Source: an uncultured Methanosarcinales archaeon
GTDB lineage: Archaea; Nanobdellota; Nanobdellia; Woesearchaeales; DSVV01
Reading direction: 5' to 3'
Assembly: GCA_964385055.1 (NCBI GenBank)
Contig: CAYLMH010000005.1
Coordinates: 2,801 to 66,800, forward strand
Length of the DNA stretch: 64,000 nt
Below, one piece after another: positions 16,387 through 45,148 of this stretch. Made by a program: the position numbers and the translations under genes. Under the pieces are notes generated by a model. The model saw only the letters and a program-made list of their open reading frames with translations, searched no databases and was not told the DNA's origin. How positions within the stretch are numbered: the stretch's first letter is position 1; the number at the start of each line of letters is the position of its first letter.

Positions 16387-17655
16387 ATGGTAGTACTCAC
16401 ATCAGAGCAACTTGAAGAAAGATTTAATACAGAGCGACCCCTTCGTCTTGCAGACCCAATAGATAATTTTGTTCTCTTTGTTGTTGGTGCACATGCTGCT
16501 GGAAAGGATACTATTCTTGGACGAATGCAAGAATTAAGACGAGAAGAGGGTGATGTTCTTCAATATGGTGCATATAGAAAATTAGAATATTGGACCGATC
16601 GTGAACTTCGTGAAGGAGAAGGGATAGTCAGAGAACCTGGTGCAATTCATAAATCCCCTGATGAGTTCCTTGGACACTCCGGAAAATTTCTCGCATGGTA
16701 TCGAAGTAGTAATGGAAGCTTTTACGCGTTTCCTTCTGAGCTTTTTCCTCGAGACAAAGACCCTACAATCGCAATGGTGCACGTTGCGACAGACTTAGGA
16801 TTACAAGTTTGGCAAGAAAATCAAACACTTCCTCATCATATTACTGCATTCATTAATGTTCCTGGAAAAGACGATAGGAAAGCACGGGTACGGTCGCGTT
16901 TGATTGATTCCGAAGGGAATCCTCCTTCTGAAGCAACTCTTGAAGCAAGTCTTGCGGAAATGTCACGTATTAATGCTTTCTTTGTTGGGCATCCTGACCT
17001 TTATGATGTGATGTATAATAACTGTAATCCAAGTGATCGGGGTATAAGAAAAGCAATTTATGGAAATCCACAGGAAAGTGTCCAGAAAGACATTGCTCTT
17101 CGAATTAACGCACTTTGCCATCTTCATCGTGACGCGAGTTTGAGAAGGTCAGGAAATGGTATTTCAATTGCATCGCTTTGTGATCAGTATACTCGAAGAA
17201 TTTCTTCTGATCTCTTTGGTTGTGAGTTGGAAGCACTTAAGACTGATGTTCCTCTAGAGGGTCAAGTTCAGCGTGCTGTTAAAGCCTACGCAGACCAAGC
17301 GCATTTGGATTCTAATAAACTCTATCCCATGCTTGAGCCAGTTACTATTCGCAGTATTGATTTACACCCCCGAGGTTCGGAAAAAGCAGGAGTAGTTGTT
17401 GTTAATCTTACTCCTCAGCATCATATTCCTACTTCTGTTGCTCAATTACTTGTAAGGACTCCGGAGTCTCCTGATTATCATGTTCTTCGCATCCTTGGTC
17501 AACGAATTTACGGAGAAACAAAAACACGACCAGACTATCTTGTTAATAAAAATGGGAATCTTGTAGGGATTTCTTGCTCTCTTAGCGATATGCGACCAAG
17601 AGATCAACAATCAGGACAATATCATCGCTTAGAAATTCGTTTGGGTTATAACTAA
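16387..17655 (+). CDS. Guanylate-kinase-like P-loop domain fused to an uncharacterised 230-aa C-terminal domain
   Basis: Walker A GAHAAGKDT. WTDRELREGEG and FLAWYRSSNGSFYAF resemble GMP-kinase TTRxPRxGE and FLEW..YGT. Confidence 0.5.
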   Translation: MVVLTSEQLEERFNTERPLRLADPIDNFVLFVVGAHAAGKDTILGRMQELRREEGDVLQYGAYRKLEYWTDRELREGEGIVREPGAIHKSPDEFLGHSGKFLAWYRSSNGSFYAFPSELFPRDKDPTIAMVHVATDLGLQVWQENQTLPHHITAFINVPGKDDRKARVRSRLIDSEGNPPSEATLEASLAEMSRINAFFVGHPDLYDVMYNNCNPSDRGIRKAIYGNPQESVQKDIALRINALCHLHRDASLRRSGNGISIASLCDQYTRRISSDLFGCELEALKTDVPLEGQVQRAVKAYADQAHLDSNKLYPMLEPVTIRSIDLHPRGSEKAGVVVVNLTPQHHIPTSVAQLLVRTPESPDYHVLRILGQRIYGETKTRPDYLVNKNGNLVGISCSLSDMRPRDQQSGQYHRLEIRLGYN

Positions 17656-17672: not shown

Positions 17673-18641
17673 CTATTTTGCGATCTCTTTTTTCTCTTGT
17701 TCCTGAAGCGCATACGTGATTGTTGCCTCAATGTTGTGGACGAGAATTTCTAAAACACTTCTACAATAAACCACAAGCATAAGTTCTTCAGGGGAAATTG
17801 TCTTTTTTACTTGTGCAATTTCTTTTATTAGCGCGTCACGCACTTTATAGATTGTGGTTGCTTTATGATAATCAAATTTGTAAAAAAGATCATAATACAC
17901 GCGAACTGTTCCAAATATTTCACGCAATATACCAATTGTTTTTGGATGAACCTTTTTCATGGTCAAGACTTCTCGCGCAGCATATCTGAGCACGTCTCCT
18001 ATTTTATTGAGGTTCATGAGGATTGCGTACAACAAAATATTCTTGTATTTTTCCGGATACCCTATTCTGTTTAACAATCGCTCACAATATGCGATGAAAA
18101 TAAGGATATTGAAAAATTTTTGATCCATTGTTTCCAAAAGAACTTTATCGTCGTTTTCACATGCTTTCACAAACTCATCGCACGCATCCATAAGAAGAAG
18201 GAATGTTCGTCGTAACATGGATTCTAGCTCTTCAAATGATGGCTTTGAGATGCTTTTATAGACAAAATAATTTTCTTTCTGCTCAATGATTTGCATTCCA
18301 ACCCAGCGGCGGAGTTCTTCATGAAGCAATGTTGCGACTAAGACTTTCTCTCCAGTTCTATAATGCACTGCTGTTTTGTTCTTGAAATTTACTTTTATAA
18401 TATCATATCCTCTTCTGTACGCAGCGCGGAGAACGATGAATATGGATGTTCTATCAAGATCTGTGATGTCTAATGTAATTTCCTGAAGTGTATCTTCACG
18501 CTTCGTTGAAACTTCAAGCATATTGTCCTTTTCAACGACTTCTAGTTCATCGCCTTTTTTGACATTATACTTTTTCGTCCATTGTCTTGGAAGAGAAATT
18601 AATTGTGTCGAATCCGCAATCTGAATTACTTTTCGTCCCAT
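17673..18641 (-). CDS. AbrB/SpoVT-domain plus PhoU-like regulator
   Basis: N-terminus VIQIADSTQLISLPRQWTKKYNVKKGDELEV (AbrB swapped-hairpin type) followed by a helical PhoU-like repeat region. Confidence 0.6.
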   Translation of the reverse strand: MGRKVIQIADSTQLISLPRQWTKKYNVKKGDELEVVEKDNMLEVSTKREDTLQEITLDITDLDRTSIFIVLRAAYRRGYDIIKVNFKNKTAVHYRTGEKVLVATLLHEELRRWVGMQIIEQKENYFVYKSISKPSFEELESMLRRTFLLLMDACDEFVKACENDDKVLLETMDQKFFNILIFIAYCERLLNRIGYPEKYKNILLYAILMNLNKIGDVLRYAAREVLTMKKVHPKTIGILREIFGTVRVYYDLFYKFDYHKATTIYKVRDALIKEIAQVKKTISPEELMLVVYCRSVLEILVHNIEATITYALQEQEKKEIAK

Positions 18642-18736: not shown

Positions 18737-19747
18737 TTACACAATCCACACTTTATCGTCGATTATTGCGACAAGAACTTCTTTCTTTTCTCCTTTTTGA
18801 TATATTTCAGGATTCTCTACTTTTACGCTTTGGTATGTTTCTGGATGAAGGATTTCAACATCTGGGTATTCTTTTGTAATCTGGACTCTTCTGAACGTTT
18901 CTGGTGTTGCGCAGATTTTCATGCGCGCTTTCTCGTCAATCGTTGTTCGTTTTCCGTTTTTAAGATTTGTTCCTTGCAATTGTTTTCCAATATTGGTGAG
19001 TTTTAGGTATTTCTTTTCATACTCGACAATCGTGTTTACTTTGTACGATGGAAGTCGCACGCTTGCGTTAACCCGGTAAATGTCTTTGCTCGTTTGTCTG
19101 CTCTTGCTGTACAGTTCACCATGTGTTTTTCCTACTGCCCCGAATTTTTCGACGATTTTGTTGGTGATGATGGGAAGATATTGCTGTTTTGTGACGTAGT
19201 AATCAATGCCATTGGTGACTTCTTCCATTTTGGTTACAAACACGCCTTTTTCATTTGCGCGACCTACTTCCTGAAGAATGAATTCATGCGCTTTTTTGAG
19301 GACTTCTTTGTTTTCTCCTCGAAGTTGCAGAATTCCTTCAAAATATTCTGTTCTTGCTCGTGTGCATTTATCGCACATAATATGTTTTACTTTTATTGGA
19401 AATTCATGTTCTTCAAGGAGTTTTTGTTCATCGATCGTCGCTTCTGTCCGAAGCGTGACTGTTCCCATCTGCACTTTTCCATGCTCTGCTTTTAATTCAA
19501 TGTCTACATCAATCGCATCTGGTTGAATAATGAAATTGCAATGCTGCACCACTGCTTCTTTCATCGCTTCTTCTTCAGGTTTTGGATGCTTCCACTCTCT
19601 TTGATATTTGTAGGAACCGCAACTTTCGCAAATAAGCAGCGTATGCTCTTGATACGACTTCAATGTGGTGTGTTTTTTGCTGAAGCACTCATTACACAAG
19701 ACCGCGTTTTTCTGCTCTACTGCTTTTCCACATTGGATGCATTTCAT
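18737..19747 (-). CDS. NMD3 family (ribosomal large-subunit export/maturation) protein
   Basis: N-terminal Cys clusters CIQCGK..CNEC and CESCGSYKYQREW. Confidence 0.7.
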   Translation of the reverse strand: MKCIQCGKAVEQKNAVLCNECFSKKHTTLKSYQEHTLLICESCGSYKYQREWKHPKPEEEAMKEAVVQHCNFIIQPDAIDVDIELKAEHGKVQMGTVTLRTEATIDEQKLLEEHEFPIKVKHIMCDKCTRARTEYFEGILQLRGENKEVLKKAHEFILQEVGRANEKGVFVTKMEEVTNGIDYYVTKQQYLPIITNKIVEKFGAVGKTHGELYSKSRQTSKDIYRVNASVRLPSYKVNTIVEYEKKYLKLTNIGKQLQGTNLKNGKRTTIDEKARMKICATPETFRRVQITKEYPDVEILHPETYQSVKVENPEIYQKGEKKEVLVAIIDDKVWIV

Positions 19748-19881
19748 ATTGGTGAGTGTGCTTTGTTCCTATATAAACTTATGTTGCCTAAACTCCTTTC
19801 TCCCTGTTGCTTTTCTGTCACTACCAAATAATAGTAAATCTAGGGGAACCTTTAAATATAACCTCGAATTTAACGTTTATT

Positions 19882-20760
19882 ATGGGGTCATTAAGAAAAT
19901 TTCCTGGTTTAGAAGTACTTATGGAGGCTCTTCAAAAAGACACTGGTCTCCTTGACATGGCAATAACAGGTATTCCTGAATCACAACAAGAAATTCTGTA
20001 CACTACTCTTTTAGGGATGTCTCCAGAAGAGAGGCATAGGCTCTTGAGAATTTGCATCACGCATGGTTCTGAAGATCGTTCTTTTCTTCTTCAAACAATA
20101 GGAAATGGACTTATTGACAAACTCACTGCCGTTTATAATCGAACAAAATTTAACACTGATCTGAATGCAGCAATTGAAGTTGTTGATCGTACTTATCAGC
20201 TTCCTGCTCTCTTACAAAAAGAAAGACGATTAGAAGCGGTTTTAGGTCTTCCTCCTCGAGCATCTGCATCTCATAGTGATGTTACTCTACTCCTTCTTGA
20301 TATTGACAAATTTAAACGTGTTAATGATGTTTATGGACATCCAACAGGCGATCGTGCTCTTCAGCTCGTTGCAACAATTGCTGTTCAAAGTCTTCGCTTA
20401 GATGATCATCAACGCTTTTATCGATATGGTGGCGAAGAGTTTGCGGTTATATTACCTTATACTTCTCTTGAGCAGGGAATTATTGTTGCAGAACGTATTC
20501 GTCAGAATGTTGAGGAGAGACTCGCAGATTCACTTCCTAAAAAAGGGAGATCTCCTATTCGAGGAATTACTGTTTCTGTAGGTCTTGCAAACTATCGCGC
20601 AACAACAGCCATGGCGACTGAACTTATTAATCAGGCGGACTTTGCATTATATGCCGCAAAATATGCGGGAAGAAATTGTGTGAGAGTATACGACCAATCT
20701 CTGCTTGGAACGAAAGTGCAATCTGCCTATCTCAGAAAGTTGCAAAAAGAAGAGCAATAA
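19882..20760 (+). CDS. GGDEF-domain diguanylate cyclase
   Basis: DKLTAVYNRTKF, LLLLDIDKFKRVNDVYGHPTGD and RYGGEEFAVILP. Start chosen at ATG 19882; the ORF track begins at TTG 19807. Confidence 0.8.
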   Translation: MGSLRKFPGLEVLMEALQKDTGLLDMAITGIPESQQEILYTTLLGMSPEERHRLLRICITHGSEDRSFLLQTIGNGLIDKLTAVYNRTKFNTDLNAAIEVVDRTYQLPALLQKERRLEAVLGLPPRASASHSDVTLLLLDIDKFKRVNDVYGHPTGDRALQLVATIAVQSLRLDDHQRFYRYGGEEFAVILPYTSLEQGIIVAERIRQNVEERLADSLPKKGRSPIRGITVSVGLANYRATTAMATELINQADFALYAAKYAGRNCVRVYDQSLLGTKVQSAYLRKLQKEEQ

Positions 20761-20800
20761 AACCCAAACATTTTTAACGTTCCTTCTTTCATCTTTTTTT

Positions 20801-21427
20801 ATGCAATTTAAGGAAATACTCAAAAAAACATGGTGGTTTATCTGGGAAAGCGATAGCTGGTGGAGTTGGCCAGTAAACCTACTTCTCGCGTTTATTCTCA
20901 TTAAATTTATTGTGTATCCTGGTTTAGGGTTTATTTTTGGCACCGCGTTTCCTGTTGTCGCTGTTGTTTCTGGAAGTATGGAGCATGATGGAAGTTTTTC
21001 AGATTGGTGGCTGAGTAGCGCGTATTGTTCAGCATCTTGCTCTCAAGAGGATTGGTACGCAGGATATGGCATTACTGAGGAGCAATTTAAGGAATTCTCT
21101 TTCAAAAATGGTTTTAACAAAGGAGACATTATGGTTCTGAAAGGGGTGGAACCTAAAAATATTAAAATTGGAGATGTTTTAGTATTTCAAAGCGCGTATG
21201 GAAATGAGCCCATTATTCATCGTGTTGTCGCAATTTTTGGTGATGAAACGACTGGTTTTGTGTACCAAACAAAAGGGGATCACAATGGTGATTCTGGCAA
21301 TATTGATAAAGAAATTCAACAAGATGCAGTGTATGGAAAAGCAATATTCCGGATTCCATTCCTGGGCTGGATTAAGATTGCGTTTGTGTGGCTTTTCAGC
21401 CCGTTCATTGATCTTGTTTTTGGTTAA
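20801..21427 (+). CDS. Signal peptidase I (archaeal Sec11/S26B type)
   Basis: TM anchor, catalytic Ser box VVSGSME, IIHRV box and KGDHNGDSG. Confidence 0.75.
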   Translation: MQFKEILKKTWWFIWESDSWWSWPVNLLLAFILIKFIVYPGLGFIFGTAFPVVAVVSGSMEHDGSFSDWWLSSAYCSASCSQEDWYAGYGITEEQFKEFSFKNGFNKGDIMVLKGVEPKNIKIGDVLVFQSAYGNEPIIHRVVAIFGDETTGFVYQTKGDHNGDSGNIDKEIQQDAVYGKAIFRIPFLGWIKIAFVWLFSPFIDLVFG

Positions 21428-21457
21428 TATGTTTTATAATTATTGAGGTGGTTTACG

Positions 21458-21772
21458 ATGATGTTTTGTCCAAAATGTGGAGGATTACTTCTTCCAAAAG
21501 TAGATGGCAACAAAAAAACAATGCACTGCAAATGCGGTTATAGTACAAAGCAGGTTGACAGCGCAGTTATTTCTGAAAGAATGCAGGAAAAACAGGCAAT
21601 TAGTGTTGTAGAGAAGGAAATTGAACCACACCCGCTCACGATTGCAGAATGCCCTAAATGCAAGCATCGCAAGGCATATTTCTGGACAGTGCAGACAAGA
21701 GCTTCTGACGAACCAGAAACAAAGTTCATGAAATGCGAGAAATGCGAGCATGTCTGGCGGGATTATAGTTAG
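21458..21772 (+). CDS. tfs: Transcription factor S (TFS / RpoM-like)
   Basis: Two zinc ribbons (CPKCGG..CKCGY; CPKCKH..CEKCEH) and an acidic-loop motif QTRASDEPET. GAGGTG lies 8 nt upstream of the ATG. Confidence 0.85.
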   Translation: MMFCPKCGGLLLPKVDGNKKTMHCKCGYSTKQVDSAVISERMQEKQAISVVEKEIEPHPLTIAECPKCKHRKAYFWTVQTRASDEPETKFMKCEKCEHVWRDYS

Positions 21773-21881: not shown

Positions 21882-22076
21882 ATGGCAGGCGAAGATGACG
21901 ACAGCTTTTTAGAAGAAGATGCAGGAGATAAAGATCAACAGAACTTTGATGAGGATGTTGATAACGATGAGATCACTCCTGGAGAAGAAGGATTCTTACA
22001 AGGTTATGATTCTGCTGAAGGCGAAAGCGAAGAAAAAACAGAGAAGCCTAAAGAAGAAGAGGAAGAAGGAAAGTAA
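21882..22076 (+). CDS. Small highly acidic protein (hypothetical)
   Basis: 64 aa, Asp/Glu-rich, with GGAGGTG upstream of the ATG. Confidence 0.5.
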   Translation: MAGEDDDSFLEEDAGDKDQQNFDEDVDNDEITPGEEGFLQGYDSAEGESEEKTEKPKEEEEEGK

Positions 22077-44524: not shown

Positions 44525-45148
44525 ATGGTCTACGTTGTGCAGCCGACAACAAGGATACTTTTTTCTATGGTTCTTGAAGACACAGCAGTGCAGGATTTTC
44601 TTGAAACAATGAAGAGACATCACGCAGATACTGCGCTTCACTCGAAAAGAGTAGGGGTATATACTCTGGATATATATGTCACAAAACACATGGCAACGGA
44701 AAGCGGTATAATCGTCATAACACAAGACAATCTCAGCGAAGCATTACGCTGGGGTGCTGCGGGAGTATATCATGATGCAGGAAAATTATTAACTCCTGTT
44801 GAAATATTAGCAAAGCCAGGAAAGCTCGATGAGAAAGAAAGAGCAAGAATGAATAGGCATCCTCTCCTTGGACTTCAGATTTTAGATGAGTATACAAGAG
44901 ATGAAGCAGCGTATCATGCTGCAGTAGGACACCATGAATATAAAACAGGAGCATCATATCCACGACACAAAAGAAGAGGGGAAGATGAACTTGTCGAAGC
45001 AGTTGCGCTTGCGGATTTCTACGATGCGCTGGCAAGTAAACGAGGATACAAACCGGCATTTTCAAAAGATGAAATAGAACGAATAATGCACGAAGAATTT
45101 AATGGAAACCCACAACATCTTGATGAACTTTTAAGAAGATCTGCATAA
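44525..45148 (+). CDS. HD-GYP-type phosphohydrolase
   Basis: HSKRVG, YHDAGKLLTP, RMNRHP and GHHEYKTGASYPR (an HHExxxGxxYP variant). Confidence 0.7.
   Translation: MVYVVQPTTRILFSMVLEDTAVQDFLETMKRHHADTALHSKRVGVYTLDIYVTKHMATESGIIVITQDNLSEALRWGAAGVYHDAGKLLTPVEILAKPGKLDEKERARMNRHPLLGLQILDEYTRDEAAYHAAVGHHEYKTGASYPRHKRRGEDELVEAVALADFYDALASKRGYKPAFSKDEIERIMHEEFNGNPQHLDELLRRSA

Follow-up and report, generated by a model that had tools for sequence, protein, structure and literature searches.

The window examined here, a stretch of 64,000 nucleotides at positions 2801-66800 of contig CAYLMH010000005.1 in the archaeal assembly GCA_964385055.1, carries an intact gene for a GGDEF-domain protein of 292 amino acids, a candidate diguanylate cyclase that would produce cyclic di-GMP (c-di-GMP). 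Our results make it highly likely that this is a native, vertically inherited Woesearchaeota gene encoding a soluble class-I GGDEF cyclase that works by the mechanism proposed below. We consider the archaeal diguanylate cyclase to be real and native, and probably active.

The protein matches the GGDEF profiles PF00990 (E=1.3e-35, 123 bits against a cut-off of 23.8) and TIGR00254 (132.3 bits, cut-off 37.4), and its closest solved relatives are the active cyclases 3IGN, DosC, PleD and WspR (E~1e-20). An initial annotation of this DNA had recognized a GGDEF signature composed of YNR, DIDKFKRVND, HPTGD and GGEEF with the flanking RY and AVILP, and both PF00990 and the alignments with solved cyclases agree with it: YNR occupies residues 85-87, DIDKFKRVND residues 140-149, HPTGD residues 153-157 and RYGGEEFAVILP residues 181-192. 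The DxLT turn, a criterion for the start of a GGDEF domain (Sidorov et al., 2026; PMC13725321), is found at D79-K-L-T82. The domain begins at D79 and not near residue 122, and the earlier division into a 110-residue N-terminal and a 170-residue C-terminal part gives way to an N-terminal module of about 78 residues.

On careful alignment all substrate- and metal-binding residues are retained: besides the DKLT of residues 79-82, the key positions D140, N148, D157, R181, GGEEF (183-187), K260 and R264 (the last two within AAKYAGRN) align with the same motifs of 3IGN and DosC. We take the residues that bind metal, phosphate and guanine to be the equivalents of D327, N335, D344, K442 and R446 in PleD numbering. 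The catalytic, metal- and guanine-binding residues are invariant across five aligned orthologs, whose identity to the window protein is 57-94%, and the hairpin R181-Y-G-G-E-E-F187, including the preceding Arg, is identical in all five. A wider alignment covers 79 archaeal GGDEF domains, which are the best-scoring matches from the same archaeal class, so that conservation is somewhat inflated; here D140 and N148 occur in all 79 domains, R181 in 78, and D157 and K260 in 77 each, while the position of R264 holds R or K. The DxLT turn has its D in 76 and its T in 75 of these domains. In line with these alignments, an AlphaFold2 (AF2) model of the protein (predicted local distance difference test, pLDDT, 67 overall and 71-89 in the core) is matched by Foldseek to the GGDEF structures of DosC, 3IGN and WspR and to a GGEEF domain from V. 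cholerae, with E-values of ~1e-11 and target-normalised TM-scores of 0.82-0.87. A faint similarity to Cas10 (15.8 bits, under the cut-off) was set aside as a generic palm-domain relationship, and a PADLOC search for defence systems gave no match for the cyclase.

The gene lies in the middle of a 67.8-kb contig, with archaeal genes on both sides, in a genome of 1.49 Mb and 73 contigs (86.7% complete, 0.77% contamination). The NMD3, Sec11 peptidase and transcription factor S (TFS) genes that had been named as its archaeal neighbours are confirmed by PF04981, TIGR02228 and the TFIIS/RPB9 profiles, respectively, and Pth2 is also among them. The gene order AbrB-like, NMD3 <> GGDEF, Sec11, TFS is found again in at least six other assemblies, namely the NCBI metagenome-assembled genome (MAG) L026, the Logan assembly L027, the ENA assemblies L094 and L095, and the congeners G001 and G003. 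The ArgRS of the orthologous contig shares one 90% cluster with a protein labelled 'Candidatus Woesearchaeota archaeon'. Additionally, the composition of the cyclase gene is typical of the window, both in G+C content (0.400 versus 0.387) and in tetranucleotide usage, its distance to the window profile standing at the 34th percentile of equal-sized segments. Because synteny recurs in independent assemblies, the composition is typical and the promoter is of archaeal type, the initial view that this is not contaminating DNA holds: the sequence data point to a gene native to a Woesearchaeota (DPANN) genome and not to a chimera or a contaminant.

The opposite explanation, that bacterial DNA was mis-assembled, mis-binned or very recently acquired by horizontal transfer, draws on a GGDEF family that is overwhelmingly bacterial, on nearest non-ortholog database matches that sit in bacterial-looking contexts, and on an earlier study in which archaeal GGDEF matches, other than the one archaeal GGDEF protein then known, came under suspicion of contamination (Galperin et al., 2018; PMC5847659). 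It is already contradicted by the position amid archaeal genes, an arrangement repeated in six other independent assemblies, and by the window-typical composition and the conserved archaeal TATA box. Furthermore, the orthologs form a clade that lacks a close bacterial sister, the best bacterial identities reaching ~40-50% over the domain only, and GGDEF genes also occur in closed single-contig genomes of the order. We regard this explanation as extremely improbable.

The open reading frame starts at ATG 19882. A longer form starting at the upstream in-frame TTG at 19807 was discarded, as the conserved TATA box falls within the extension. Since this box is centred ~27 nt 5' of ATG 19882, translation would start at that ATG, and the sequence implies a leaderless archaeal mRNA transcribed from the gene's own TATA promoter. 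The promoter block CTTTAAATATAACCTC is kept in four of five aligned loci, the 40%-identical G003 ortholog being among these; in G001 (L028), AAATATAACCTC is retained and the TTT is split by an insert upstream. The divergently transcribed NMD3 gene has a TATA box of its own, ~26 nt 5' of its ATG at 19747, which is conserved across close orthologous loci.

Residues 1-83 were modelled by AF2 as four helices (pLDDT 74), the last of which enters the DxLT turn in the manner of a cyclase stalk. The resulting N-terminal module is strongly conserved among the orthologs and holds about three 15-residue helix-turn repeats (GIPESQQEILYTTL, GMSPEERHRLLRICI and HGSEDRSFLLQTIG). It has no match in Pfam at E<=10 or, by Foldseek, in the PDB at E<=0.001, and a search against 1.84 billion representative proteins returned its own orthologs, weak matches to helical-repeat proteins and nothing else. 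Judged by these searches, the four-helix module is restricted to this genus. A kinship with 15-residue 'MSPEER'-type helical-repeat proteins was considered and rejected, the weak matches being read as repeat-like composition and not as homology. As a separate observation, two proteins of this repeat type, P0129 (3610 aa) and P0130 (975 aa), carry ~15-residue 'L..M(S/T)PEER..L' helical repeats with a weak resemblance to the module, and P0130 additionally touches the MgtE_N and HEAT profiles.

The GGDEF domain itself departs from the canonical form in two places. First, a lineage-specific insertion of ~28 residues separates helix alpha1 from strand beta1; it is indel-prone among the orthologs, AF2 gives it an extra helix at low confidence, and because of it PF00990 matches in two stretches, the best of them starting from profile position 26. 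The domain accordingly spans 191 residues as compared with the 160 positions of the profile. Second, the inhibitory site (I-site) is displaced. An RxxD motif five residues before GG(D/E)EF is common in these enzymes, although not obligatory. In the window protein the motif is RLDD (172-175) and lies seven residues before GG, as initially annotated and as the 3IGN alignment confirms by placing a 2-residue insertion between RxxD and GG. Among the 79 archaeal domains the spacing is five in 49 and seven in seven; the latter comprise five members of the protein's own clade and two other domains that both have, in addition, an RxxD at the canonical five residues. The spacing in the G003 ortholog is six. 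In these alignments the 7-residue spacing is characteristic of the ortholog clade.

These features can be set against bacterial cyclases with an N-terminal stalk, such as WspR (3BRE; GCN4-stalk fusion 3I5C), DgcB of C. crescentus (6TTR) and SiaD of P. aeruginosa (7E6G), and against the isolated domains of DosC (4ZVF) and Marinobacter 3IGN. The window protein shares with them the fold (they are its top Foldseek matches), the catalytic residues, an N-terminal helix that runs into DxLT, and an RxxD motif. Unlike them, it lacks REC, haem and any other known sensor domain, has the extra insertion before beta1 and the RxxD at seven and not five residues from GG, and is 27-32% identical to them.

The most likely degrading partner is a putative stand-alone HD-GYP-type phosphodiesterase of 207 amino acids, encoded 24 kb from the cyclase on the same contig and representing the only HD_5 copy of the genome. 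Its motifs comprise H39, HD (82-83), H112, HHE (136-138) and DFYDALASKRGYK (D..DAL.S.R.YK). The best PDB matches are the HD-GYP enzymes PmGH (4MCW, E=1.4e-13), V-cGAP3 (5Z7C, E=1.9e-13) and PA4781 (4R8Z), with which the candidate has HD, H, HHE and D..DAL.S.R.YK in common at E=1e-13 to 1e-7. It differs from them in being a stand-alone domain devoid of REC or GAF, in leaving the N-terminal quarter of the profile unmatched, and in the GYP motif, as it reads G-A-S-Y-P where PmGH reads G-T-G-Y-P. Among the 61 nearest relatives, HD_5 is above cut-off in 24; 21 genomes have GGDEF and HD_5, 21 GGDEF only, three HD_5 only and 16 neither, which amounts to an odds ratio of 5.3 (Fisher p=0.013, kinship being ignored).

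The GGDEF complement of the genome consists of this one gene. The initial annotation had advised looking for PilZ or other c-di-GMP receptors, and that search found neither PilZ nor MshEN in the genome; each of these is present in one of the 61 relatives. EAL is likewise missing from the genome and is above cut-off in two of the 61. An Rfam scan of the window gave no match, and the c-di-GMP-I (GEMM-I) riboswitch RF01051 gave none across the 61 genomes, where the control genomes were equally silent. The sole MshEN match belongs to G027, an assembly of 290 contigs with 5% contamination that also shows eight GGDEF and five HD_5 matches, with GGDEF-HD-GYP fusions on ~2-kb contigs; this pattern looks like bacterial contamination of the bin and is best left out of archaeal counts.

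The rank of the cGAMP-specific V-cGAP3 as second-best PDB match of the HD-GYP-type protein, together with the lack of PilZ and MshEN, would suit an enzyme with another product, that is, 3'3'-cyclic GMP-AMP (3'3'-cGAMP) or cyclic di-AMP (c-di-AMP) as in Hypr-GGDEF proteins, with the HD-GYP-type protein acting as a cGAMP phosphodiesterase. However, the mark of the cGAMP-making Hypr-GGDEF enzymes is a Ser in place of Asp in the xxGD motif (Sidorov et al., 2026), whereas the window protein reads HPTGD, its specificity position being an Asp (D157) that is invariant in the orthologs, and N148 is canonical. A product other than c-di-GMP is consequently very unlikely in our view.

For the preferred reading, a c-di-GMP-forming cyclase, we propose the following mechanism. 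The gene's own archaeal TATA promoter would give rise to a leaderless mRNA. In the protein, the ~78-residue helical module and its terminal stalk helix would join two chains, bringing a pair of GTP-loaded GGDEF domains face to face for the condensation of two GTP into c-di-GMP. The re-registered RxxD may or may not retain product inhibition. The HD-GYP-type protein encoded at 44525-45148 would degrade c-di-GMP as a putative partner, and the signal would be read by a receptor outside the PilZ, MshEN and EAL classes, all of which are absent from the genome. The data establish an intact gene, its residence in an archaeal genome, the conservation of the full set of catalytic residues, purifying selection, the promoter and the phyletic spread, whereas catalysis, dimerisation by way of the N-terminal module, the HD-GYP pairing and a physiological role of any kind are inferred.

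The distribution of the cyclase and HD-GYP genes within the genus is uneven. In the congener G001 both are present and occupy the same slots. Both slots are vacant in G004, and cleanly so: 70 bp separate NMD3 from Sec11 (G004:C22, L104), and 36 bp (G004:C20, L106) lie between the amidohydrolase gene and Pth2, the two genes on either side of the HD-GYP gene in the window. The ratio of nonsynonymous to synonymous substitution rates (dN/dS) is 0.22-0.32 for the cyclase and 0.03-0.14 for NMD3, Sec11 and TFS; the cyclase is under purifying yet relaxed selection. Divergence around the gene is also mosaic. Compared with L094, the cyclase DNA is 90-100% identical (dS 0.14), but dS rises to 0.5-0.9 in NMD3, Sec11 and TFS on its flanks; in the comparison with L026, the cyclase shows the strongest divergence of all, at 62% amino acid identity versus 87-95% for its neighbours. 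This pattern at 19748-21430 suggests recombinational allele exchange in the cyclase slot.

Many bacterial GGDEF proteins serve as binding scaffolds or interaction modules. An intact GGDEF protein without a cyclase role in vivo, serving instead as a scaffold that binds GTP or c-di-GMP or as a module for protein-protein interaction, would be compatible with the raised dN/dS, with the presence and absence of the gene within the genus, with the GGEEI of the G003 ortholog and with the lack of PilZ and MshEN receptor genes in the genome, as well as with the catalysis-independent phenotypes of several archaeal GGDEF proteins (Sidorov et al., 2026). The invariance of all catalytic, metal- and guanine-binding residues in the five orthologs, and their near invariance in the 79 archaeal domains, would nevertheless be unexpected for a mere scaffold, and the catalytic Glu residues are retained in the GGEE[ILM] variants. 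Taken together, the evidence makes a purely non-catalytic role unlikely.

Other points count against an active c-di-GMP cyclase with the mechanism above. To our knowledge, there is no measurement of c-di-GMP from any archaeon. The gene evolves several-fold faster than its neighbours and has been lost from, or was never present in, one congener, for which reason it is to be regarded as dispensable; in addition, G003 keeps a diverged cyclase (GGEEI), and its HD-GYP slot is empty. The HD-GYP candidate itself has SYP in place of GYP and a moderate score only, and the genome holds no gene of the known receptor classes PilZ and MshEN. Both AF2 models (pLDDT 67 and 74) were built from five sequences and are of moderate confidence. 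The alpha1-beta1 insertion and the shifted I-site may alter function. Finally, in the earlier study of archaeal GGDEF proteins only three of seven MAG-derived proteins gave a clear riboswitch signal (Sidorov et al., 2026).

In a maximum-likelihood tree of 173 GGDEF domains (79 archaeal and 94 top database matches), the orthologs form one clade, with a Shimodaira-Hasegawa-like approximate likelihood ratio test (SH-aLRT) support of 92 and an inner node of 99. The clade has a long, isolated branch and lacks a supported sister, the backbone is unresolved, and the archaeal domains cluster above chance but in no single clade. A domain phylogeny had been suggested as a means to find the donor: the ortholog clade was recovered, whereas no donor lineage can be named because the clade has no supported sister. 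The nearest match, P0034, has bacterial-looking surroundings, but its place in the tree lacks support. A whole-protein scan of genome contigs returned two bacterial GGDEF loci and nothing else.

The rarity in archaea that the initial annotation had implied does not stand. PF00990 occurs in 48 of the 61 nearest relatives and is above cut-off in 46. At E<=1e-10, GGDEF is present in 139 of 301 genomes of the order (~46%) and in 112 of 216 genera, closed genomes included. A high-quality sample drawn from the whole phylum, with further orders of the class and single-contig closed genomes among its members, gives 137 of 301 genomes at the same threshold. The architectures found in the order (REC-GGDEF, PocR-GAF-GGDEF, PAS-PAS-GAF-GGDEF and short GGDEF-only proteins) are of the same kinds as those reported by Sidorov et al. 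(2026), who termed archaeal GGDEF occurrence sporadic. GGDEF is common and not sporadic in this DPANN lineage. As an aside, two genomes of the same family hold, on G014:C7 and G005:C81, open frames of ~10,000 amino acids with weak GGDEF-like stretches (E 4e-10 to 1e-5).

Cyclase activity has already been reported for several archaeal GGDEF proteins in bacterial reporter assays, DPANN MAG proteins included, the latter having increased the signal of c-di-GMP reporters in E. coli and Salmonella (Sidorov et al., 2026). After that work the present locus is solid but unsurprising. The proteins of that study (among them KHO53289.1 and KHO53915.1 from DPANN MAGs, and GGDEF_MRE50 of Methanocella arvoryzae) resemble ours in their unambiguously archaeal flanking genes, mostly in DPANN, in a canonical GG(D/E)EF with the signature residues and, in many cases, in being short with little or no recognisable sensor domain. 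Their activity was deduced from bacterial reporters. The window protein lies outside the tested set and is distinguished by the genus-restricted four-helix module, the ~28-residue insertion and an I-site shifted by two residues. HD-GYP co-occurrence and receptors were left open there (Sidorov et al., 2026). Our survey, with GGDEF in ~46% of the genomes of the order and HD-GYP, not EAL, as the usual companion, sharpens these questions and leaves the picture qualitatively unchanged.

Beyond this gene, we tentatively suggest, and with more doubt than conviction, that Woesearchaeales and sister orders, in about half of the genomes sampled, possess a minimal, dispensable c-di-GMP circuit made up of one or a few GGDEF cyclases, a stand-alone HD-GYP, receptors unlike the bacterial ones and, in this genus, the four-helix control module. 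Receptors of a non-bacterial kind are invoked here because PilZ, MshEN and EAL are absent. If such a circuit exists, its accessory-gene behaviour (allele exchange, fast evolution and joint absence in a congener) would fit host or surface attachment and not core physiology. For the question of whether archaea actually use c-di-GMP, the locus offers a clean, small, soluble 292-residue candidate enzyme. With one cyclase under its own promoter, one putative degrading partner and no other GGDEF, EAL, PilZ or MshEN gene, this genome would be a simple system in which to find the signal reader.

Table 1. Features of the candidate cyclase locus and its putative partner (positions refer to the window).
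Feature	Position	Strand	Description and evidence
GGDEF gene, candidate diguanylate cyclase (P0001)	19882..20760	+	292 aa, intact open reading frame; PF00990 and TIGR00254 matches
GGDEF domain, aa 79-270	20116..20691	+	Profiles, ortholog alignment, archaeal domain alignment, Foldseek
Active-site GGEEF, aa 183-187	20428..20442	+	Sequence, structure-relative and ortholog alignments
RxxD I-site, R172-L-D-D175	20395..20406	+	3IGN and ortholog alignments
N-terminal four-helix module of ~78 aa, aa 1-78	19882..20115	+	AF2 model, ortholog conservation
Lineage-specific ~28-aa insertion, aa ~105-132, helix alpha1 / strand beta1	20194..20277	+	Split Pfam match, ortholog alignment, AF2
Cyclase TATA box TTTAAATA	19851..19858	+	Centre ~27 nt 5' of ATG; read from sequence
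NMD3 TATA box TTTATATA (minus-strand reading)	19770..19777	-	~26 nt 5' of NMD3 ATG at 19747
NMD3 homologue, divergent, conserved left neighbour	18737..19747	-	PF04981, 136.6 bits; synteny
Archaeal-type signal peptidase I (Sec11 homologue), conserved right neighbour	20801..21427	+	TIGR02228, 74.7 bits (cut-off 51.85); synteny
Transcription factor S (TFS)	21443..21772	+	PF01096, 66.7 bits, and PF02150 (TFIIS, RPB9 zinc ribbons)
Stand-alone HD-GYP-type phosphodiesterase candidate, 207 aa	44525..45148	+	PF13487, 42.7 bits (cut-off 27.2)

Three further genes of the neighbourhood deserve mention. An orphan protein of 422 amino acids (16387-17655, plus strand), with a P-loop-like GAHAAGKDT motif close to its N-terminus, has no match in Pfam, NCBIfam, PADLOC or PDB sequences; it is syntenic in L026, where it is 73% identical, and is fast-evolving like the cyclase. 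The adjacent 322-residue protein (17673-18641, minus strand) has a DNA-binding domain of AbrB/MazE type at its N-terminus as its sole assigned part; with 95% identity in L026, it shows the top conservation in the neighbourhood. Downstream of TFS, an extremely acidic open reading frame of 64 amino acids (21882-22076, plus strand) is called as a gene in ENA contigs, and 45 of its residues are 100% identical in L026.

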